The notes beneath the pieces were generated by a model. It saw only the letters and a list, made by a program, of their open reading frames with translations. It made no database searches and had not been told where the DNA came from. Of a stretch of 64,000 nt of DNA, positions 41,345 through 64,000 are shown in pieces. The stretch is from positions 830,796 to 894,795 of the forward strand of contig JAXGZJ010000001.1 in NCBI GenBank assembly GCA_040771805.1. Reading direction: 5' to 3'. Positions within the stretch are counted from its first letter, which is position 1. The number at the start of each line of letters is the position of its first letter. Position numbers and translations under genes: made by a program. This DNA is from Methanofastidiosum sp. Lineage in GTDB: Archaea > Methanobacteriota_B > Thermococci > Methanofastidiosales > Methanofastidiosaceae.

Positions 41345-41419
41345 TGCCGCGGGCCGGATTTGAACCAGCGGAATACCAGATCTTCAGTCTGGCGCCCTCC
41401 CAGGCTAGGCGACCGCGGC
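41345..41419 (-). tRNA. tRNA-Phe (anticodon GAA); CCA not encoded
   Basis: Hand-folded cloverleaf: 7-bp acceptor stem GCCGCGG/CCGCGGC, D-stem GCCT/GGGC, anticodon stem CCAGA/TCTGG with loop CTGAAGA, T-stem GCTGG/CCGGC with loop TTCAAAT. Confidence 0.85.
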
Positions 41420-46513: not shown

Positions 46514-47611
46514 TTATCTTATTCTTATTCCGTCCCCAGTTAATTTATTATATCTGCTCTTTGAACAAGGATAGCAATAATTTCCTCCGTTGCTTTTAGA
46601 TATCCTTGTAGCCATTACGTTTTCCTTACAACAATCACATAAAATGCTATCATATATTGGGGCATATTCTGGGATATCTGCCTTCACTTTTTTTATTGAA
46701 AAAAGGCTATCAAAGTCCATTTTAAGCATGTTAAACGAGACCTCTTTTCCATATTGTTTAAATAAAGAATAATCTTCTTCGTTTCCAGCCCTATCTCTTA
46801 CTACTTTATTAAATAATTCAAAATACTCAGGAAAGTTTTTTTCAAGACCATTTCTGTAATCAGGATTAACAGAAACTCTTATCCCATTGCCATCTCTTCT
46901 AGATAGTGTTACGGCATTTTTTCCAAAATCCCGATAAATAAGGGCATTATTTCCAAATGTACATCCAGTAACATATTGGACGCCATCTGACATGCAATTA
47001 TTTGCTTCAACAATAGCGATTACTTCTTCCATCCCATCTGAAATTTCTTTGATTTCATTCATCAGATAAGCGCTTGCCCTAACTCCAAGGGATAATCCCG
47101 GGCAATAGTGGCCATGAATTGTTCCTGCCGTAATGAGTAGTTTTTCTAAATCATTCTCAGCAATGTACCTAGTTATTTCTGATCTTGGATTGTTTTTTAG
47201 GTAGCTTAGATTTTCAGCTTCTTGACCCTTTTCATCAAGAAAAGCAGAGTACGGTTTTATATCAATAACAGGTGTTCCATCGATTGCGTCAAGTCCCTTT
47301 ACTAGAAGCTCGTTACCTTTTCTTTCCAATAGCTCTACCGTAGTTAGGCCTATATTTGTCGGCCTTCGTGGGCTTCTAGAAGCAAAAACACCTTTTACTT
47401 CGCCCCCATACCTAGGGCCAATAAGTTCAAAATCTTTAGAAAGATGAAAAACAAACATTACCTGGAGATATCTGCTCTCCTCTATCTTATATAGTCCATC
47501 TTCAAAATCTTTGTCTACTATGATTGTACTCTCTGTCTTTCTTAATATATTTGGGTCTACTTGCTCCCTAAAATTATTTTTTACTGTTCCTATCTTTTTA
47601 ATATGCTCCAT
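46514..47611 (-). CDS. Fusion protein: N-terminal TsaA/YaeB-like domain, FmdE-like domain, C-terminal zinc ribbon
   Basis: RRPTNIGLTTV...KGLDAIDGTPVIDIKPY (TsaA-like); HGHYCPGLSLGVRA (FmdE-like); CDCC...CYPC C-terminal cluster; start uncertain (track start 47680). Confidence 0.6.
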   Translation of the reverse strand: MEHIKKIGTVKNNFREQVDPNILRKTESTIIVDKDFEDGLYKIEESRYLQVMFVFHLSKDFELIGPRYGGEVKGVFASRSPRRPTNIGLTTVELLERKGNELLVKGLDAIDGTPVIDIKPYSAFLDEKGQEAENLSYLKNNPRSEITRYIAENDLEKLLITAGTIHGHYCPGLSLGVRASAYLMNEIKEISDGMEEVIAIVEANNCMSDGVQYVTGCTFGNNALIYRDFGKNAVTLSRRDGNGIRVSVNPDYRNGLEKNFPEYFELFNKVVRDRAGNEEDYSLFKQYGKEVSFNMLKMDFDSLFSIKKVKADIPEYAPIYDSILCDCCKENVMATRISKSNGGNYCYPCSKSRYNKLTGDGIRIR

Positions 47612-48374
47612 TATTTTTCCTCCCCACTGGAATAACAAACGGGTAGCCATCGTGCTCCTTAATATAGACATCCACACCATATACTTCTTTAATTAATTTT
47701 GGAGTAATTATATCGTGGCCTCCAACTGAATCAATCATTCCCCCTTTTAAAAAGATGAATTTGTCTGAAAATCTTAGGGCGGAATTAATATCATGCATTG
47801 TCATTATAACTGATACATCATGTCCATCCACAATTTCTGATAAGAGGTACAGTATTTCCTGCTGATTTTTAAGATCTAGACTTGATGTAGGTTCATCCAA
47901 TAATAGTATTTTTGGCTCTTGAACTATTGCTCTGGCTATTCCGACTTTTTGTAATTCTCCACCACTTAACTCATCTAAATACCTTAAAGAGAGATCTTCC
48001 ATGTTTAATTTTTTCATGGCAGAGTTAACTAATGAAATATCCTTGTTAGATACATCCCACTTTATATGGGGTTTCCTACCAAGTAAGATGGCATCAAATA
48101 CAGTTATCCTTACAGTTTCGTTTCTTTGTGGAACATAACCTAACTTCTTTGCTATTTCTATTCTTTTAATATTCATAATATCTTGATTCTCTACCAGTAT
48201 ACTTCCACCTTGTGGCCTTAGAATTCTATTTATGCATTTGAGAAGTGTAGTTTTGCCCACGCCATTTGGGCCTAATATACTTAAAATTTCATTCGACTCT
48301 AAATTAAAGTCTATTTGATTGAATATTTCTTTATTTTTATAACTAAATTTTAAATTAGATATTTCAAGCATCAT
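47598..48374 (-). CDS. ABC transporter ATP-binding protein (FepC/BtuD-type), second system
   Basis: Walker A GPNGVGKTT, signature LSGGELQ, Walker B LLLDEPTS. Confidence 0.85.
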   Translation of the reverse strand: MMLEISNLKFSYKNKEIFNQIDFNLESNEILSILGPNGVGKTTLLKCINRILRPQGGSILVENQDIMNIKRIEIAKKLGYVPQRNETVRITVFDAILLGRKPHIKWDVSNKDISLVNSAMKKLNMEDLSLRYLDELSGGELQKVGIARAIVQEPKILLLDEPTSSLDLKNQQEILYLLSEIVDGHDVSVIMTMHDINSALRFSDKFIFLKGGMIDSVGGHDIITPKLIKEVYGVDVYIKEHDGYPFVIPVGRKNNGAY

Positions 48375-49441
48375 CTTCTTCCTCCTTTTATCAATAGGAA
48401 GATAAAAATTGGTGCACCCATAAATGCTGTTAAAATTGCTACAGGTAAAACATGTGGGGCAACTATCAATCTGGCTGCAGTATCAGAAAGTGACAATAGT
48501 ATACCTCCCATTAGGATAGACCCTGGTATTAGAAAACGATTGTCGTCACCGATTAAGATTCTTACTATATGCGGACATACAAGCCCTACAAATCCAATAA
48601 CACCAAGGAAAGCTACAATAACTGCAGTAACAAGAGAGGAAACAATCATCCCTATTAGGCGAATTCTTGTGACATCTACGCCTAAACCTAAAGCAGTGTC
48701 ATCACCTGCGTCAATTGCATTATAGTTCCATCTATTTATGAAAAAGTATATTGCGGCCAATATTACTACAATTGATATTATGCTTAATTCTCGCCAATCG
48801 GCTCTTGCAACATCACCAAAAGACCAAAAAACAACAGCTGCTAACTGCACATCATCGGCAAAGAATTGAAGAAACATTGTTCCTGCTGTAAATAGGGACG
48901 ATAAAGCTACTCCTGCTAAGATCATTACTTCAGGTGAAGCTTTTTTCATATGGGCTATTCCCAATATGAACGCAGTTGCAAGTAGACAAAAGATAAATGC
49001 AACTATAGTTGTGGTATATGGATTATTGATTACTATGGCATCCATAGCTCTACTACGCATAGTTCCTGTACCCAAAATCATCACAGAAAATGCTGCACCA
49101 AATGCCCCGGCGTTAGAAATTCCTAGGGTAAATGGAGATGCCAATGGATTCCTTAAAATCGATTGCATTGCAACACCCGCAACACCGAGTCCAATCCCAG
49201 CAGCTACTCCCGTTAAAGCCTGAGGTAAACGAATATTCCATATAATTGTATGCCAAGTACTAGACTGGGCATTACCAATTAAAACTTTAAAAACCTCAGG
49301 TAATGGTATGTTTACTGCCCCCACAGAGACAGAAAATGCAATTGAAAATATTAAGAATAATAAACTACCAATTAAAAAAATCATTTTTTTCCATACATAA
49401 TTAAGATATCCTTCTGGCAATTCCGATTCATTTAAGTGCAT
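48371..49441 (-). CDS. ABC transporter permease (FecCD/BtuC family), second system
   Basis: Polytopic FecCD-like permease; overlaps the ATPase gene start. Confidence 0.85.
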   Translation of the reverse strand: MHLNESELPEGYLNYVWKKMIFLIGSLLFLIFSIAFSVSVGAVNIPLPEVFKVLIGNAQSSTWHTIIWNIRLPQALTGVAAGIGLGVAGVAMQSILRNPLASPFTLGISNAGAFGAAFSVMILGTGTMRSRAMDAIVINNPYTTTIVAFIFCLLATAFILGIAHMKKASPEVMILAGVALSSLFTAGTMFLQFFADDVQLAAVVFWSFGDVARADWRELSIISIVVILAAIYFFINRWNYNAIDAGDDTALGLGVDVTRIRLIGMIVSSLVTAVIVAFLGVIGFVGLVCPHIVRILIGDDNRFLIPGSILMGGILLSLSDTAARLIVAPHVLPVAILTAFMGAPIFIFLLIKGGRR

Positions 49442-49470
49442 CTTATTCCTCCCTTTGTAAAAAAATAAAA

Positions 49471-49491
49471 ATGTCTAGGTTTACTAGACAT
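49471..49491 (-). terminator. Intra-operon hairpin followed by a U-tract, between binding-protein and permease genes
   Basis: ATGTCTAG-GTTTA-CTAGACAT (8-bp stem) followed on the coding strand by TTTTATTTTTTT, then the GGAGG RBS of the permease. Confidence 0.35.
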
Positions 49492-50591
49492 CATATATCT
49501 AATTTTTTAAAGCCTATATTATTGAACTCAGAGTTTAATTCACTAAACACAGCTTTACCAAATAAAAATGTATAAATTTCGTCTGCTTTTTTAACTGGAT
49601 CTATATCTGAGAATTTTTCTGGATAAATAACTTTTCCGACGAAGTAAGCATCAGCTAAAACTGATCCTTGATTTGCATTATACCAATTATAGGGTATCAC
49701 TGCGTAGACTTCTCCAGATTTTACGGCACTTAATTTTTTATATGCTGAGTCCTTTTTCAATTCATCAATTGCTGTATCTGTTTCTAATTGTATTGTAGCA
49801 ATATCAACAAATAGTATGTCCGGATCCCACTCTACTATCTTTTCTTTAGCAACTTCTGTTCCTTGGCTCCCCAATGCTGAAGCAACGTTATTTGCATTTA
49901 CAAAGATAAATGGGGGGTAACCTGGCTCTGTTGAATGTAAACCGTGTGGGCCTGCCCTCGCCACTCCACCAATGTATACTGATTTTCTCTGGGATTCAGG
50001 TACATCCTTTGTCCTGTTGTTTAAATCTTCAATCCCCTTATCAAAGAAGGATATTACTTCTTCTACTCTAGCTTCTTTGTTCATTACTTTTGCCATAATT
50101 CGCCAGGTTTTATACATTTCACTCCTATTTTTACCAAGATCTCCATAGTTTAATGCAACTACTGGAATTCCAGTTTTAGTTTGAAGTTTATCGGCATCTT
50201 CAATTGTTGTTTGAACTTTGAATATTATTTGGGGATTCAAAGCAATTATTTTTTCGGGATCGTCTTTTCCACGAAACTCTCCAAATATTGGGTAGTCTCT
50301 AAATTGTCTATTTGCAATTGCATATGGTCTTGCATCAAACTTAGAAGTTCCTTTTTCAATGTCATCTACACCGACTATTTTATCGTGAGCTTGTAGATAA
50401 GTTAGGTACCTTAGGCACCCTGAACCTGAACAAATTACTTTAGTTGGATTTACAGGTACAGTTACTTCTCGTCCGAGCGAATCGGTTATTTTCATTGTTT
50501 TTTGTGAAGTATCCGTTGTGTTGCTAGTGCATCCTGCTGACAAAAACATTGCAGCTACTAACACTGCAATAATAAAAATATTTGCACACAT
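49491..50591 (-). CDS. ABC transporter substrate-binding protein (BtuF/FepB-like lipoprotein), second system
   Basis: Start placed at internal Met (MCANIFIIAVLVAAMFLSAGC, lipobox-like); track ORF extends to 50729. Confidence 0.7.
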   Translation of the reverse strand: MCANIFIIAVLVAAMFLSAGCTSNTTDTSQKTMKITDSLGREVTVPVNPTKVICSGSGCLRYLTYLQAHDKIVGVDDIEKGTSKFDARPYAIANRQFRDYPIFGEFRGKDDPEKIIALNPQIIFKVQTTIEDADKLQTKTGIPVVALNYGDLGKNRSEMYKTWRIMAKVMNKEARVEEVISFFDKGIEDLNNRTKDVPESQRKSVYIGGVARAGPHGLHSTEPGYPPFIFVNANNVASALGSQGTEVAKEKIVEWDPDILFVDIATIQLETDTAIDELKKDSAYKKLSAVKSGEVYAVIPYNWYNANQGSVLADAYFVGKVIYPEKFSDIDPVKKADEIYTFLFGKAVFSELNSEFNNIGFKKLDI

Positions 50592-50939
50592 TTTTTTATT
50601 TTTGATAAAAACACCTCCGCCAAATAGAATAAGTATTCTATTTATAAGTATTACGTTTTTTTGATACGTGCTACTATTTTTATAAAATCTATCTTTAATA
50701 ACACTTGATAAATTTTTCAATTGCAGCATTGATTCTGTTTCTAGCTTTACTTGATATACTAATTGTCAAAATTCTTTGTAAAATCTAAGTTATTTTCCTT
50801 CTCTATTTCTGAGTAAGGAGGATATAATTAATCAATGCAGTTATAGTCTTTTTCTATAAATATATGCTTTGTTGAATAATTCCAAACAAACGACAATTAT
50901 CTCTAACTTGCCCTTTCTTTACCTTTAGCTTTACACTAG

Positions 50940-51744: not shown

Positions 51745-53061
51745 CTACCACAATGACTTGCTTAGTATTTCTCTACTGTTAATAACTCTGCATTCTATAA
51801 CAAGGGAAGTTTCATTGACAAATGATTTTATTCGTTTTTCAGTATGTCCTACCATCCCTCCGCTTGTAAGGATAAGGCATTGTTTTCCAGACAATGAAGT
51901 CAAAATAGATTTATCAATAACGTTGGAAGTTACATCAAGGCTAATATTGTCCTTGCTACAAATAGATTTGCTTTTAGAGCCCATTGCTCCCACATATTGG
52001 ATCTTATATTCACCGATAATATTCTGGACTTCTTGAAAGTCATAAAAATCAGTATTATAGATATATATTCTTCCAATATTCTGATGATTGTGGAACTCAA
52101 TAATTGCATTGTTATCTTGGGACTTATAAAAAACAGTTCCCTTCTTAAAGTAGTGATCATTTGGAACATCGTTAAACTCAACTAGATCCCCAACTTTTTT
52201 GTCTGAAGAAATCTTCCTCCACTTTAAATTAGAAGGTTTTAAGAAACCGACTAATTCCAAAAGATTTTTCGGAGTTTTGCCGTCTGTGGCTAAATTTCTA
52301 TTTACAAGTTCATTATATATCTGAATTATAAGGGGAGTTTTAAGATGTGTTTTTTTAATTAGTTCCTTTTCTTTAAACAGCGTATCTGGAGTTCCCTGGC
52401 CAACTATCTTTCCGTCAGCCATTAAATAAACGTAATCAGACCATTGATAAGCCAGCTCGATATCATGGGTAGAAATTATTATTGTTTTGCCGTAGCTATT
52501 GAGCTCATTTAGTATGTCCATAACTTCATTGGCGCCTCTAGGGTCAAGATTAGACAGTGGCTCGTCCAAAACGATGATGTCAGGTTCCATTACAAGTATG
52601 CCTGCTATTGCAGCTCTTTTCTTTTGGCCACCACTTAAATGATGAGGGGATTTTTCTTTTATATGGAGGAGATCAACATAATCCAAAGCCAATTCAGTGT
52701 ACTTTTTAACCTTATCTTCATCCCATCCAAGATTCATAGGGCCAAACGCCACGTCCTGATAGAGAGTTGGTGCAAAAAGTTGATCATCCGGATTTTGGAA
52801 TACCATCCCAACTCTTTTTCTGATTTCAACTAGATTTTTACTGCTATATTTCATTTTTTCTCCATTAAATATAATCTCTCCTTCAGTTGGGGCATGAATC
52901 CCATTAAACATTAAAAAAAGAGTGGATTTTCCAGCTCCGTTTGGGCCTACAAAGGATATTTTTTTACCTGCCTCTATTCTGATATTTACCCCCTTGAGGG
53001 CCTCAAACCCATCTCCATAAGTATATCTGACGTTTTTAGCTACAATGATAGGATTAGTCAT
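51745..53061 (-). CDS. cbiO: Cobalt ECF transporter ATPase CbiO with a ~150-aa C-terminal extension
   Basis: Walker A GPNGAGKST, signature LSGGQKKR, Walker B IVLDEPLS; 438 aa, longer than a typical CbiO/EcfA. Confidence 0.85.
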   Translation of the reverse strand: MTNPIIVAKNVRYTYGDGFEALKGVNIRIEAGKKISFVGPNGAGKSTLFLMFNGIHAPTEGEIIFNGEKMKYSSKNLVEIRKRVGMVFQNPDDQLFAPTLYQDVAFGPMNLGWDEDKVKKYTELALDYVDLLHIKEKSPHHLSGGQKKRAAIAGILVMEPDIIVLDEPLSNLDPRGANEVMDILNELNSYGKTIIISTHDIELAYQWSDYVYLMADGKIVGQGTPDTLFKEKELIKKTHLKTPLIIQIYNELVNRNLATDGKTPKNLLELVGFLKPSNLKWRKISSDKKVGDLVEFNDVPNDHYFKKGTVFYKSQDNNAIIEFHNHQNIGRIYIYNTDFYDFQEVQNIIGEYKIQYVGAMGSKSKSICSKDNISLDVTSNVIDKSILTSLSGKQCLILTSGGMVGHTEKRIKSFVNETSLVIECRVINSREILSKSLW

Positions 53062-53849
53062 AAAATCACTCCAATTCCCACATTTCTCGTAGTATATGTT
53101 AAGATTATTATAAATAAAAGATACAATATTGACACCACTGCTTCTCTCAAAGATATAGGTTTGGTGTCTTTAAAAATAGATATTTTTCCATCATAGCATC
53201 TTGAATTCATGGCAATGTAAAGCTTTTCCCCTTGATCCCAAGTCCGTATAAATAATGTGCTTGCAAGTATGGCAAGAGAATGCATCCAATTCTTAAAAGA
53301 GATGTATCCCATTCTCATATTTTGAGCATCTTCCATTTTCATTGCCAAATCCAAGAATACAAATATATACCTATATATCAGCATGGATAATTCAATAAAT
53401 ATTTCAGGTAATTTTAACTCTTTTAAAACATAAAATAGATGTGTTACAGGTGTAGACAGGGATAAGAAGTAAAGGCAACTCAGTCCAGAAATTGAGCGTG
53501 AAAAAACAAGGACCGCCATATTCAGCCCCCCCATAGTTATTGATAATTTATAATTAAAGATATTAAATGAAATAATATCGGGGCCTGTTCCAAAAAAGAA
53601 TAATATAATTAAAATTCCAAATATCAAAAAAGTACCTGGTATTAATAATAACTTAAGATAAATTTTGACAGGTACTTTATTGAGATATATAATCGCTAAA
53701 CCAAAAAAAAGTGAAATAATAATAGGAGTAACTGGTGATGTGGACATTACCCCTATTATCATAGAAGACAAGGCCAGCAATACTTTAAGCTCAGCATTTT
53801 TGTATCTAAGTGGGCTAATTATGGCATAGTCTTCTAATATCGTATGCAC
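53058..53849 (-). CDS. cbiQ: Cobalt ECF transporter T component CbiQ
   Basis: Polytopic membrane protein between cbiN and cbiO; overlaps cbiO start. Confidence 0.8.
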   Translation of the reverse strand: MHTILEDYAIISPLRYKNAELKVLLALSSMIIGVMSTSPVTPIIISLFFGLAIIYLNKVPVKIYLKLLLIPGTFLIFGILIILFFFGTGPDIISFNIFNYKLSITMGGLNMAVLVFSRSISGLSCLYFLSLSTPVTHLFYVLKELKLPEIFIELSMLIYRYIFVFLDLAMKMEDAQNMRMGYISFKNWMHSLAILASTLFIRTWDQGEKLYIAMNSRCYDGKISIFKDTKPISLREAVVSILYLLFIIILTYTTRNVGIGVIL

Positions 53850-53873: not shown

Positions 53874-54143
53874 TTATTGTTTGCCTTTGTAAAATCCTAG
53901 GAAATACCCTATTATTAGTCCACCTATGGCTGCCTGGAGACTAAAGAATAAACTTTCAATCTCTCCGCTTGGCGGTTCCCATAAAGGTTGTACTATAGGT
54001 TCAAATTCTGGATTTAACTCAGCAATTACATCCCCAGCCTCATCGTCAGCTCCGCCCCATTCAAAACTGCCGGTTGAAGATACAACTACAAATGCAACTG
54101 CAAATATTAGGATTGAGATAATTGCTATTATTTCTCCTTTCAT
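53874..54143 (-). CDS. cbiN: Cobalt transport protein CbiN
   Basis: 89 aa, two TM helices flanking an acidic loop. Confidence 0.8.
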   Translation of the reverse strand: MKGEIIAIISILIFAVAFVVVSSTGSFEWGGADDEAGDVIAELNPEFEPIVQPLWEPPSGEIESLFFSLQAAIGGLIIGYFLGFYKGKQ

Positions 54144-54841
54144 GCTTTTGCACCTCTGCCTAATACTTCTTTTACTGTTTCTTTTGGCATTACCTTCATC
54201 TTTACGAGTATATCTGATCTAACCTGTAAAACATACTTTAAAAGTAGTGCAGTGAGAACACCTTCCATTAAAGCAAGTGGTACTTGTGTAACGGCAAATA
54301 CTGTGGCGAAAGAAGCAAATGAAGTCATGAATCCACCTTCTGCAGCAGGAAATGCCAAGGCGAGTTGAATTGAGGTCATTACATACGTAAACCAGTCAGC
54401 AAATGTTGCAGCAAAAAAAGCGGCTATGTAAAAGTTGATTTTGACCTTCATTAGTGCTTTATAGATAATATATCCAAATATAGGGCCAACTATACCCATC
54501 GAAAATGTGTTTGCCCCGAGTGTTGTAAATCCTCCATGAGCCAAAAATAATGCTTGGTATATCAAAGATATGAAAGACAAGACCGCAGTTACGAATGGAC
54601 CAAAAATAATTGCTCCTAGTGCTGTTCCTGTAGGGTGTGAACAACTGCCAGTGACCGAGGGTAGTTTCAGCGAAGATAAGACAAATATGTAAGCACCTGC
54701 TACAGCCAATAGTGGCAATATTTCTCTGTTTTGCTTGACTAACTTATTGATTTGATAGATTCCATATATTATAAATGGAACTGCCAAAACAAACCAAATA
54801 ATCCACCAAGGAGATGGTAGAAATCCTTCCATTATATGCAT
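54140..54841 (-). CDS. cbiM: Cobalt ECF transporter S component CbiM
   Basis: N-terminal MHIMEGFLP typical of CbiM; polytopic; overlaps cbiN start. Confidence 0.85.
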   Translation of the reverse strand: MHIMEGFLPSPWWIIWFVLAVPFIIYGIYQINKLVKQNREILPLLAVAGAYIFVLSSLKLPSVTGSCSHPTGTALGAIIFGPFVTAVLSFISLIYQALFLAHGGFTTLGANTFSMGIVGPIFGYIIYKALMKVKINFYIAAFFAATFADWFTYVMTSIQLALAFPAAEGGFMTSFASFATVFAVTQVPLALMEGVLTALLLKYVLQVRSDILVKMKVMPKETVKEVLGRGAKA

Positions 54842-61232: not shown

Positions 61233-61865
61233 TTACTCTATCATGTAAAGCAAGGCATTAATTATTGCTGCTCCAACTGTGCTTCCACCTTTACGACCAA
61301 GAGTTGTTATATATGGAACTTTAGTTTTAATCAAAGCTTCTTTTGACTCCGCTGCACCAACAAAACCAACTGGTACCCCGACGATAAGGTCGGGGAATAA
61401 TTTCTTTGAATTAATTGCATCGATAAGTGTAAAAAGAGCCGTGGGTGCATTTCCATTTACAAATATCTTTATCTTATCGTTGAGTATTGCCTTTTCCATT
61501 GCTGCCATAGATCTAGTTACGCCTTTTGATCTTGATTCTTCAATAACGTCATCATCACTTACGTAGCATAATACCTTGCCACCAAACTTTGAGAGAATTC
61601 TTTTGTTTATTCCTTCCGAAGCCATTTTTGTATCAGTATAAATATAAGATCCTTTTTTCAGAGATTCAATAGCATTGTCAATGGCCCCTTCGCTTATCTT
61701 AATAATACTTGCATACTCAAAGTCGGCCGTTGTATGTATGACTCTCTTTATAACTTTACCATGACTTTCTTCAAATTTAATATCTCCTAACTCTTTTGTA
61801 ATTATTTCAAAACTCTTTTTTTCAATTTTAACAGGATCCTTTTCAAATTCAATCATTTTGTTCAA
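61233..61865 (-). CDS. cbiC: Cobalt-precorrin-8 methylmutase
   Basis: ~210-aa protein of CbiC/CobH size with a conserved His-containing VIHTTADFEY segment. Confidence 0.75.
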   Translation of the reverse strand: MNKMIEFEKDPVKIEKKSFEIITKELGDIKFEESHGKVIKRVIHTTADFEYASIIKISEGAIDNAIESLKKGSYIYTDTKMASEGINKRILSKFGGKVLCYVSDDDVIEESRSKGVTRSMAAMEKAILNDKIKIFVNGNAPTALFTLIDAINSKKLFPDLIVGVPVGFVGAAESKEALIKTKVPYITTLGRKGGSTVGAAIINALLYMIE

Positions 61866-62752
61866 CTCAAGCCATTATTTAATATATCTTCAATCATTTT
61901 GTAATTAAGTTCTTTTTGTGATAAATATAAAAAGTTATCAATATTTTCAATCCAAATATTTCTGATATCCTCTGTATTACAGTTTATTTGTGAGGAAATA
62001 TTTTTCATACCCAGACTATCCTCTTCAGGGAACATAAAATTATGGTAAGACAACACGCCCAAGGTAGGCACCCTAGTTATTTTTTCAAGTTGGATTATTC
62101 CGCTTGCCAGTATGGAACGTTCTCCTCTAAATTTATTAATTATAAATCCTTTAACATATTTCTTATGTTCGGCGGGGAGAAGAGAAAAAGTTCCATACAA
62201 TCCGGCGAATACTCCACCGATATCTATATCGCCAACAATAATTACTGGGGATTTTGTGATTTCTGCTGTTTTCATATTAGCTATGTCATACTTGGAAATA
62301 TTAATCTCAACAGGTGAACCTGACCCCTCACAAATGACTATGTCATATTTTTTTGAAAGATTTAAGTAGCAGTCATGTATTTCCTTTAATAATTCCGCTC
62401 TAATGTTTTCCATTTCAGATTTCTTAAAATCCCCCAATGGTTTTCCTTTAAGAATAATCTGATATGAACTATTCCCCTTTGGCTTTAGTAGAATTGGATT
62501 CATATCATATTCAGGTTCTATGTTAGAAACCCATGCTTGGAAACTCTGGGATATGCTTATTTCATGGCCTTTATCTGTGATGAAGGAGTTTAGGGATAAA
62601 TTTTGAGCTTTGAATGGTGCAACTGAAAATCCTTTTTTATAAAAATACCTACATAATAAAGCTGTTAGAATACTTTTCCCAGCTCCTGATGTTGCTGCCT
62701 GGACCATTAAGGATAAGCTCATGGTGAATCCTCCAAGCCAATAATAGTGCAA
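61862..62752 (-). CDS. CobQ/CbiP-like ATPase-domain-only paralog (no glutamine amidotransferase domain)
   Basis: P-loop MVQAATSGAGKS, VAPFKAQNLSLNS and MNPILLKP motifs of the cobyric acid synthase N-domain; ORF ends before any GATase motifs. Confidence 0.6.
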   Translation of the reverse strand: MHYYWLGGFTMSLSLMVQAATSGAGKSILTALLCRYFYKKGFSVAPFKAQNLSLNSFITDKGHEISISQSFQAWVSNIEPEYDMNPILLKPKGNSSYQIILKGKPLGDFKKSEMENIRAELLKEIHDCYLNLSKKYDIVICEGSGSPVEINISKYDIANMKTAEITKSPVIIVGDIDIGGVFAGLYGTFSLLPAEHKKYVKGFIINKFRGERSILASGIIQLEKITRVPTLGVLSYHNFMFPEEDSLGMKNISSQINCNTEDIRNIWIENIDNFLYLSQKELNYKMIEDILNNGLS

Positions 62753-64000
62753 AGTTGATGCATATCTATATTTTCTTCAAAAGTTTTCGCTAGCTTCTCA
62801 AGGCTTAAATCTATTACATGATTATAGTCAAAGTATGTCTCTTTAGTTGTATCTATTTTCTTAGATATCAAACTTAAAAAATATTTTCTAAATGAAGGTA
62901 AATCAAATATGCCATGTATATATGTTCCCATTACTTTGAGATTAGTATCTATGCAACCTTCAAAATGTGTCCCGTTAACATCGTATATTTGAAAAATTGG
63001 TTTATTTCCATGTGTTATTGTTTTACCTGTATGGATTTCATAGCCTCGGACAAGGCCATCCCCTACTCTGTATTCTTCGAGGACTTTACCATTCACCTGT
63101 ACAGTTTTTTTATCATATAAGTCAAAGTAAGTAGAAACATCTAGAAGATCCAGGCCTTCGTACTCTGCTTCGCCTTCGCCTTCCATGCCTTTGTCAATAA
63201 TTTTTTTACCAAGCATTTGGTATCCGCCACATATTCCAATTATGGGGATAGAGCCTGACCTTTTTTTTATTGATTCAAAGAATCCTTTTTGTTTTAACCA
63301 TTTTAAATCTTCAACGGTATTTTTAGTTCCTGGGATAATAATTGCATCGACCTTCTTGACTTTTGTTGGATCATCAATAAAAATCACTGAAACATTTTTC
63401 TCTAAATCTAGTGCATCAAAATCTGTAAAATTAGATATCCTTGGAAGTTTGATTACACCTATTAAAATTTTTGAACTGTCCATCTCTTCTGACTTTATAA
63501 ACATTGAATCTTCCATTGGAAGATTAAGCTCTATATGTGGAACAATGCCCAAAACTGGGACACCGACTAATCTTTCAATTTCTTCTATTCCGTTATGAAG
63601 AGAAGATTTATCTCCCCTTAGATTATTTATTATTACTCCTTTGAACCGTTTCCTATCTTTATCATGAAGTAAGTTCAATGTTCCATAGATATATGCAAAA
63701 GATCCACCCCATTCTATATTGACAACTAATATACATGGAGCGTCTGCAATCTCCGCAGTTTTCATATTTGCTATTTCACTATCCCTTATGTTAATTTCTG
63801 TCGGACTTCCTGCTCCTTCGATTACAACGACATCATTTAATCTTCTAAGAAAATGGAGATTGCTCCTTACAATTTCAAGGCCTTTTGACCTTGTAAAGGA
63901 ATAATACTCTTCAACGTCCATATCTTTGTAAGGTTTCCCCTCAATTACAACTTGAGATACGTTGTCCTTTTTCGGTTTCAACAGGATAGGATTCATGTAT
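62719..64000 (-). CDS. cobQ: Cobyric acid synthase-like amidotransferase (CobQ/CbiP or CbiA family), 5'-truncated by the window edge
   Basis: MNPILLKP...VIEGAGSP ATPase-domain motifs plus C-terminal GATase motifs (PRISNFTDFD, GICGGYQMLG, H-containing YIHGIF); P-loop region lies beyond 64000. Confidence 0.7.
   Translation of the reverse strand, partial: YMNPILLKPKKDNVSQVVIEGKPYKDMDVEEYYSFTRSKGLEIVRSNLHFLRRLNDVVVIEGAGSPTEINIRDSEIANMKTAEIADAPCILVVNIEWGGSFAYIYGTLNLLHDKDRKRFKGVIINNLRGDKSSLHNGIEEIERLVGVPVLGIVPHIELNLPMEDSMFIKSEEMDSSKILIGVIKLPRISNFTDFDALDLEKNVSVIFIDDPTKVKKVDAIIIPGTKNTVEDLKWLKQKGFFESIKKRSGSIPIIGICGGYQMLGKKIIDKGMEGEGEAEYEGLDLLDVSTYFDLYDKKTVQVNGKVLEEYRVGDGLVRGYEIHTGKTITHGNKPIFQIYDVNGTHFEGCIDTNLKVMGTYIHGIFDLPSFRKYFLSLISKKIDTTKETYFDYNHVIDLSLEKLAKTFEENIDMHQLCTIIGLEDSP

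Follow-up and report, generated by a model that had tools for sequence, protein, structure and literature searches.

Canonical cobyric acid synthase (CobQ/CbiP, EC 6.3.5.10) is one polypeptide of ~500 residues, and one of its defining features is that the synthetase domain shares its chain with a C-terminal glutamine amidotransferase domain (GATase_3), which holds a catalytic Cys and His. Canonical CbiP is described (Williams et al. 2007, cited in PMC7242693) as amidating four carboxylates sequentially and dissociatively. In a 64,000-nucleotide stretch of Methanofastidiosum sp. (assembly GCA_040771805.1, contig JAXGZJ010000001.1, positions 830,796 to 894,795; this whole stretch, with a G+C content of 33%, is called the window here), two cobQ-like genes follow each other on the minus strand within a cobamide biosynthesis gene cluster. 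The short gene, designated S, lacks the glutaminase domain that the longer upstream gene, designated Z, possesses, and S seems to be the small subunit of a conserved two-gene, heteromeric cobyric acid synthase with Z, a reading to which a probability of roughly 0.55 is assigned. Both proteins descend from canonical CobQ; all have the same type of BioD-like synthetase domain, C-terminal tail, and cob operon setting and share the P-loop and the motifs PFK.QN..LNS, NPxLLKP, and EGxGSxxEIN. However, the Z-S system consists of two polypeptides, and Z carries an extra Cys-rich N-terminal domain and, in this lineage, altered loops. These archaea, therefore, probably make cobyric acid with a two-protein enzyme, whereas a single protein is used elsewhere.

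Separate glutaminase and synthase chains are found in HisH/HisF and PdxT/PdxS, where ammonia is passed between subunits, although, unlike in Z, these glutaminases are not fused to a paralogue of the synthase partner. In the lipid II isoglutaminyl synthase MurT-GatD, as described in PMC3267633 and PMC5871853, a CobQ-type GATase_3 (GatD) is separate and is encoded beside the ATP-dependent ligase that it serves. By analogy, MurT-GatD is the nearest conceptual precedent, but the Z-S split runs the opposite way: in MurT-GatD the glutaminase is free-standing and the ligase is of the Mur type, whereas in Z-S the synthetase is free-standing and the glutaminase is fused to a paralogous synthetase. BioD is a dimer with its substrate site between the subunits (PMC8659263), and it shows the same P-loop and E-G-x-G-G motif as S at a sequence identity of only 16-18%; unlike S, this homodimer closes a ureido ring and has neither a glutaminase partner nor a C-terminal tail. 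The lysine deacetylase AhCobQ of Aeromonas hydrophila, a protein of ~264 aa annotated as 'CobQ' with an ATPase-type domain only (PMC11856932), was considered as a relative of S and rejected, as it is ParA/Soj-like (AAA_31), its activity resides in an unrelated C-terminal segment, and only the P-loop fold is common to both. In a literature search that left most subscription journals uncovered, no published Z plus S pair, PF04071-CobQ fusion, or split or GATase-less CobQ was found.

Its sequence identifies S as a genuine CobQ synthetase domain. It exceeds the cut-offs of two CobQ models, with 328.1 bits against NF001989 (cut-off 273) and 313.1 bits against TIGR00313 (cut-off 309.9), and covers only positions 2-262 of 480 and 1-264 of 477 of these models, respectively. 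CbiA/CobB and CfbB are built on the same two-domain plan of BioD-like synthetase and GATase_3, and cbiA lies directly upstream of Z; nevertheless, CbiA/CobB act on the a and c carboxylates, unlike CobQ, and S scores far below the cut-offs of their models (24.2 bits for NF002204, cut-off 254, and 15.9 bits for TIGR00379, cut-off 261). Neither is S a member of the BioD family (21.9 bits against TIGR00347, cut-off 83.3), to which it is related by fold only. Pfam recognizes only the nucleotide-binding families PF01656 and PF13500 in S, and a Pfam search and a motif check of the protein found neither a PF07685 (GATase_3) match nor a GxCGGxQ motif, so that this defining feature of CobQ is absent from S; it is present in Z. 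A preliminary description of this stretch, based on the letters alone, had reported the motifs AATSGAGKS, MNPILLKP, EGSGSP, and DIANMKTAE in S without any GATase motif, which translation, Pfam, and NCBIfam confirm. It had also considered a loss of active-site residues; however, the P-loop Lys, the Mg-binding Glu, and the substrate-face motifs are invariant. K16, E132, N141, D146, N149, D165, and R199 are 99-100% conserved among 106 S sequences, and the (near-)invariant elements of the S alignment include the P-loop Gly-Lys, PFK.xN.SLNS, MNPxLLKP, E-G-x-G, and E139 along with N141, D146, and N149, as well as GDIxxGGVFA, G-T, N-x-F-R-G, and E-D-S. In the first of two canonical loops, G164, D165, G169, G170, F172, and A173 stand at 100% in S and 99-100% in canonical CobQ; in the second, N196, R199, and G200 are 100% and F198 is 99% conserved, matching canonical CobQ.

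After the E-D-S linker, S continues with a tail of ~50 residues that displays the motif D-x-R-x-x-W-x-x-N-L-D ... L-D, in which D252, R254, L261, and D262 reach a conservation of 90% or more across the S family. The tail of the window protein (DIRNIWIENIDNF...LNYKMIEDI) fits the family architecture of 276-297 aa with the synthetase domain directly followed by the tail. In hhalign comparisons, the tail profile matches only positions 443-464 of 464 of canonical CobQ (E 4.6e-4) and only positions 569-607 of 609 of Z (E 6.5e-5), and AlphaFold2 (AF2) models end in a pair of helices in both S (253-268 and 274-283) and Z (575-593 and 596-603). The models reach a predicted local distance difference test score (pLDDT) of 88.1 and a predicted template modelling score (pTM) of 0.88 for S, where the junction at residues 236-245 is the sole low-confidence stretch, and 88.7 and 0.90 for Z. 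Since S kept the CobQ C-terminal tail, its glutaminase domain was, by these comparisons, lost through a clean internal excision that spared the two helices. The closest solved fold to the S model is BioD (1dbs, E 1.7e-9), and SRP54/FtsY, which are heterodimeric NTPases, are also among the fold matches. A PDB sequence search with the S profile gave no CobQ structure and no match at E <= 0.01, and at E <= 10 it returned only P-loop and EGxGG fragments of BioD. In the AF2 model, strands 160-165 and 190-198 of S lead at their C-terminal ends into the loops GDIxRGGVFA and NKFRGD, respectively, and in P-loop folds these strand ends form the ligand-binding face.

The length of 296 aa given in the preliminary description holds for the open reading frame (ORF) at 61862-62752 (minus strand) if it is read from a TTG; however, the true start is almost certainly the ATG at 62722, which yields 286 aa, because homologues begin there, the ATG overlaps the Z stop codon in an ATGA, and a GGAGG lies nearby. 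An ATGA-type overlap of 4 nt also occurs in six other loci (L001, L002, L005, L009, L011, and L013). The S stop codon is a TGA at 61862-61864 (minus strand), and the coupling to cbiC that had been suggested does not stand, as these two genes are separated by a 5-nt gap; the predicted translational coupling of S is with Z. Since cbiC starts this close to the S stop, a frameshifted GATase remnant, which had also been envisaged downstream of S, would not fit between the two genes. No CobQ homologue besides Z and S was found in the 64-kb window.

Z is truncated by the window edge at 64000, beyond which its N-terminal PF04071 domain and P-loop fall, and its full length of 609 aa is known from L001 (6330-8159), a contig 99% identical to the window. 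The fragment within the window bears out the earlier claim of an upstream paralogue with both domains (PF07685, 2e-53; NF001989, 443.9 bits over model positions 72-479; TIGR00313, 410.8 bits). Z is not an ordinary CobQ: the PF04071 domain precedes a complete CobQ, and in this lineage the synthetase loops are remodelled. An alignment of 45 Z sequences shows no variation at 8 Cys and 2 His within the N-terminal domain, and the P-loop (G120 to K127), the Mg-binding Glu244, and the catalytic pair Cys440 and His545 of the glutaminase are fixed as well. The PF04071 Cys-rich 'zf-like' domain is encoded at 6330-6660 of L001, just past the window edge, and lies at residues 19-86 of P0121, a protein 98% identical to Z and labelled Candidatus Methanofastidiosa. 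This domain also occurs by itself, in proteins of 95-192 aa from Methanomethylophilaceae, Methanolliviera, and Promethearchaeota; one of these proteins is named 'precorrin-3B C17-methyltransferase' by one source. A search with the PF04071 domain alone retrieved only 31 small stand-alone proteins and no functional lead, and in the literature searched no paper mentions PF04071, while papers containing the domain name do not deal with it.

The divergence of the two proteins was compared in an alignment of 106 S, 118 Z, and 80 canonical CobQ sequences, in which 78 positions of the synthetase domain with a conservation of at least 95% in canonical CobQ were scored as kept (at least 90%) or lost (below 50%). 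S keeps 59 of the 78 and has lost 7, mostly through conservative exchanges (S/T, M/L, A/S, K/R), whereas Z keeps 55 and has lost 12, and these changes are non-conservative and clustered in two loops. In S numbering, the first loop shows G164 to V (90%), D165 to N (100%), R168 to W (96%), and V171 to A/S, and the second shows K197 to N (99%), F198 to M/L, and a variable R199. In Z numbering, this corresponds to V276 (90%), N277 (100%), and W280 (96%), where canonical CobQ has G (99%), D (100%), and R (90%), and to N309 (99%), position 310 (M71/L20), and position 311 (R33/H30/C22), where canonical CobQ has K (95%), F (99%), and R (100%). At the level of the lineage, GDIxRGGVFA has become VNxEWGGAFAY and NKFRGD has become NNMxGx, and C272 and Y286 are newly conserved in Z beside the remodelled loops. 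The glutaminase domain of Z retains 26 of 30 canonical positions, including Cys440 and His545. S and Z of the window are only 41% identical over ~190 shared residues and, thus, the duplication is old. A neighbour-joining tree recovers S and Z as two monophyletic groups, which cluster with canonical CobQ of Methanosarcinales, Archaeoglobus, and Theionarchaea, with a longer stem for Z than for S (0.159 vs 0.075). The overall pattern is that of an archaeal cobQ that was duplicated and whose two copies then diverged in complementary ways.

The S family comprises at least 105 clusters with a common architecture in a search of 5.8 billion proteins, which bears out the occurrence of the short form in related genomes that the preliminary description had proposed to survey. 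These clusters are 45-57% identical to the window S, and the named hosts are Methanomassiliicoccales (including M. luminyensis and Methanomethylophilaceae), Methanofastidiosa, Hodarchaeota, and Wukongarchaeota. At 50% identity, the family shrinks to about 4 clusters (1.84 billion cluster representatives searched). A profile scan of genome contigs with the S alignment gave S-type matches only in L011, L012, L013, and L017, the other matches being mainly canonical bacterial CobQ, which served as the outgroup.

In 11 of 11 loci picked via S (the window organism, M. luminyensis, Wukongarchaeota, Hodarchaeota, two Methanofastidiosa, Methanogranum, and four loci from the genome scan), a GATase-bearing long gene lies directly upstream on the same strand, usually with an overlap of 4 nt, and the window S is placed accordingly, directly downstream of a PF04071-CobQ. 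An independent sample was obtained by scanning a metagenome collection with a DNA pattern for the Z-specific VNIEWGGAFA; of the 17 loci retrieved, 11 reach beyond the end of Z, and in every one of these the following ORF on that strand is of the S type. Across 11 distinct loci, the pairwise distances of the S and Z cores are correlated (r = 0.88; 0 of 2000 Mantel permutations reach this value), and the mean p-distance is 0.44 for S and 0.35 for Z. In the complete genome of Methanogranum gryphiswaldense (CP076745; L009, 4187-6834), a member of the Methanomethylophilaceae from a lineage thought to rely on corrinoid salvage, the Z-S pair lies between DNA-repair and transport genes, isolated and with no other cob genes nearby. 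Distribution and gene order mark Z-S as a module that is inherited together throughout the lineage, as opposed to a tandem duplication of local origin. A split amidase partner, one of the options in the preliminary description, is favoured by this strict adjacency to a glutaminase-bearing paralogue, with the mechanism still a proposal.

Since BioD is the closest fold to S and holds its substrate site between subunits, we propose an S-Z heterodimer through the synthetase domains, which would pair as in BioD and other NTPases of the SIMIBI (signal recognition particle, MinD, and BioD) class. In this heterodimer, S would use ATP to activate, through an acyl-phosphate, the carboxylates b, d, e, and g of adenosylcobyrinic acid a,c-diamide. 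The single glutaminase on Z would supply the ammonia, although free ammonia could stand in for it. The remodelled synthetase domain of Z could have two roles, that of the partner in the dimer and that of a further site not equivalent to the one on S. A two-subunit CobQ would allow the synthetase and glutaminase functions to be separated experimentally, and Z-S bears on the question of how one CobQ site amidates four side chains in a fixed order. A bolder elaboration, speculative and rather unlikely, is an asymmetric heterodimer with two composite sites and one glutaminase, where the b, d, e, and g carboxylates would be divided by position and PF04071 would exert metal or redox control; in a more radical variant, S would have changed its nucleophile and would activate the f-propionate for CbiB. 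If true, a positional division of labour would operate where the one-protein enzyme uses ordered rebinding.

Several observations weigh against a heteromeric enzyme of this kind. The long partner of S in Wukongarchaeota (L006, 4064-5995; 643 aa, PF04071 plus CobQ) is nearest to the Z clade (464 bits vs 419 for the best canonical CobQ), but it keeps the canonical ADIERGGVFA and INKFRGN despite its S partner, and between its synthetase domain and its own S the identity is 53%, compared with 41% in the window pair. S is, therefore, not merely a substitute for a crippled Z synthetase, and the Z-S partnership predates, or is independent of, the remodelling of Z, the loop changes being a trait of the Methanomassiliicoccales/Methanofastidiosa branch, to which the window organism belongs. 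Moreover, the invariant P-loop of Z suggests that Z still turns over ATP. The roles ascribed to the two S loops derive from their strand-end position in the model, and the window S has an Ile at residue 168 (62219-62221, minus strand) within the GDIxRGGVFA loop, a position occupied by Arg or Lys in 88% of the S family, by Lys in the nearest relatives of the window S (57% identical), and by Arg in 90% of canonical CobQ. Finally, adjacency and co-divergence would also fit two independent enzymes acting at one pathway step.

This last point is taken up by the reading of S as a free-standing, ammonia-dependent cobyric acid synthetase without contact with Z, with S serving, for example, at high and Z at low ammonia. 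Many amidotransferase synthetase domains accept free NH3, S retains all canonical synthetase motifs, and its hosts come, according to the sample sources, from anaerobic settings rich in ammonia, among them the digesters and guts sampled as metagenomes. A bacterial cob operon has a GATase-less CobQ without a Z-like partner in 20 kb. Nevertheless, the strict Z-then-S order in 22 of 22 informative loci, from lineages that are apart at the phylum or class level, the retention of the pair as an isolated two-gene unit in Methanogranum, and the complementary divergence of the Z synthetase loops speak for joint action, and if S and Z were alternatives, the occasional loss of one would be expected. An S that works alone on free ammonia, the ammonia-dependent variant of the preliminary description, is, thus, possible but unlikely.

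The bacterial operon belongs to one of two further GATase-less CobQ forms, both with canonical-type tails, that were retrieved from the 1.84 billion cluster representatives. The first, a CobQ-N of 284 aa (L111, 9648-11461, on a contig shared with L108), stands at the head of an operon with the order CobQ-N, DUF4299, cbiB, cobD, cbiA, cbiC, cbiD, cbiE, and cbiT, and no full-length cobQ is visible near it in 20 kb. A GATase-less CobQ can, apparently, be the sole CobQ of its operon. The adjacent DUF4299 (PF14132) protein has 309 aa and no match in NCBIfam or PDB, and it could be the missing ammonia donor for this CobQ-N. The second form is a fusion of 757 aa (P0339) that joins a complete CbiA (503 bits) to a GATase-less CobQ synthetase domain and tail (414 bits). 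This CbiA::CobQ-N is known from L109 (54-2327) and L110 (721-2994), as two sequence variants on three contigs; it contains one GATase_3 domain and two synthetase domains, and in L109 cbiB follows with a 4-nt overlap. Both forms count in favour of the two-subunit reading, as precedents for a shared glutaminase. One GATase_3 with two BioD-like synthetase domains is, to judge from the domain architectures, a recurring arrangement, and the CobQ glutaminase domain has by the same token been lost at least three times, in the archaeal S, the bacterial CobQ-N, and CbiA::CobQ-N, an indication that members of the CobQ family may in general be able to receive their ammonia in trans.

S could also be a non-catalytic, regulatory protomer that binds ATP, dimerises with Z, and builds or gates the Z site without amidating anything itself. 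SIMIBI NTPases, with SRP54/FtsY among the fold matches of S, often form nucleotide-dependent asymmetric dimers, Z has an invariant P-loop and glutaminase, and S evolves somewhat faster than Z. However, PFK.QN..LNS, NPxLLKP, GDIxRGGVFA, and NKFRGD are kept at 99-100% in S, none of which a scaffold needs, and it is Z, not S, that lost the canonical loops; hence, a purely regulatory S is improbable.

Even less probable is that S uses CobQ chemistry, the formation of an acyl-phosphate on a corrinoid carboxylate, for another ligation with a nucleophile other than ammonia. An example would be aminopropanol phosphate, which would attack an f-propionate activated by S in concert with CbiB. Upon a change of nucleophile, the loss of the ammonia-supplying domain would be expected, and the ATP-using component of cobinamide-phosphate synthase is poorly defined. 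A GATase-less CobQ adjoins cbiB or is one gene away from it in three independent settings: S-cobD-cbiB in L113, CobQ-N-DUF4299-cbiB in L108/L111, and the CbiA::CobQ-N overlap in L109. Yet the CbiB step proceeds without such a protein in most bacteria, cobQ, cbiB, and cobD are common neighbours anyway, and the canonical substrate-face motifs are unchanged in S, as expected for the same substrates. Furthermore, the strict partner of S is Z and not cbiB, which is not adjacent in the window or in M. luminyensis.

S is intact, as the same 286-aa gene, in three more assemblies from three samples (L001, L002, and L003), which makes four with the window, and the comparison with the window S yields 6 synonymous and 3 non-synonymous changes, a strain-level ratio of non-synonymous to synonymous polymorphism (pN/pS) of 0.13. 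S is under purifying selection. A decaying duplicate, the first impression given by a truncated paralogue beside a complete one and an option of the preliminary description, is ruled out by this ratio, the conserved family, and the invariant catalytic residues, and a frameshift or misassembly that removed the glutaminase is excluded as well, since S is intact in independent assemblies and a conserved tail directly follows the excision point.

In public annotation, both S and Z are named 'cobyric acid synthase', and as S passes the cobQ cut-offs, pipelines count two CobQ genes or accept either one as sufficient. This issue touches Methanomassiliicoccales, methanogens of gut and rumen that depend on corrinoid methyltransferases, as well as Methanofastidiosa and Asgard archaea.

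Table 1. Position of S, Z, their motifs, and other features in the window.
Feature	Coordinates	Strand	Description	Evidence
S	61862..62722	-	GATase-less CobQ paralogue, 286 aa; BioD-like synthetase domain and C-terminal two-helix tail	
S P-loop	62672..62698	-	AATSGAGKS, residues 9-17	G15 and K16 100% conserved in 106 S
S first loop	62204..62233	-	Residues 164-173, GDIDIGGVFA (canonical); within the loop that joins strand 160-165 to helix 171-181	
S second loop	62120..62137	-	Canonical motif NKFRGE, residues 196-201; end of strand 190-198	
S C-terminal tail	61865..61969	-	Residues 252-286, homologous to the extreme CobQ C-terminus	hhalign, AF2
ATGA overlap	62719..62722	-	Z stop codon (62719-62721) and S start codon (62720-62722)	Sequence reading
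GGAGG	62730..62734	-	Shine-Dalgarno-like, 7 nt 5' of the S start codon, within the end of Z	Sequence reading
Z, 3' part	62719..64000	-	Residues 184-609 of 609; rest of synthetase, GATase_3, C-terminal tail	phmmer
Z remodelled first loop	63694..63723	-	VNIEWGGSFA, residues 276-285, for canonical GDIxRGGVFA	
Z remodelled second loop	63610..63627	-	NNLRGD, residues 308-313, for canonical NKFRGD	
Z Cys440	63229..63231	-	Glutaminase nucleophile, in GICGGYQ	Invariant in Z and canonical CobQ
Z His545	62914..62916	-	Glutaminase His, in YIHGIFD	Invariant in Z and canonical CobQ
cbiC	61233..61856	-	Next operon gene, 207 aa; ATG at 61856, 5 nt past the S stop	PF02570 4e-76
tRNA	41345-41419	-	Sole Rfam match in the window	Rfam

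The operon runs in the order cbiA-Z-S-cbiC-cbiD-cbiE-cbiT-cbiL-cbiF-cbiG-cbiH-cbiJ and is followed by cbiMNQO and a BtuFCD-like transporter; no cobalamin riboswitch was found by Rfam in the window before the cob or transporter operons. After cbiM (54140-54841) and cbiQ (53058-53849) comes an ABC ATPase of 438 aa (51745-53061, minus strand), of which only the first ~200 residues are of the ATPase type (ABC_tran at 22-169, AAA_21 to 203), and its C-terminal extension of ~230 aa has no Pfam match at E <= 1e-5. Directly downstream of the BtuF/FecCD/ABC-type transporter operon (47598-50729), which itself follows the cob genes and cbiMNQO, a protein of 388 aa with TrmO_N and FmdE domains is encoded at 46514-47680 (minus strand).

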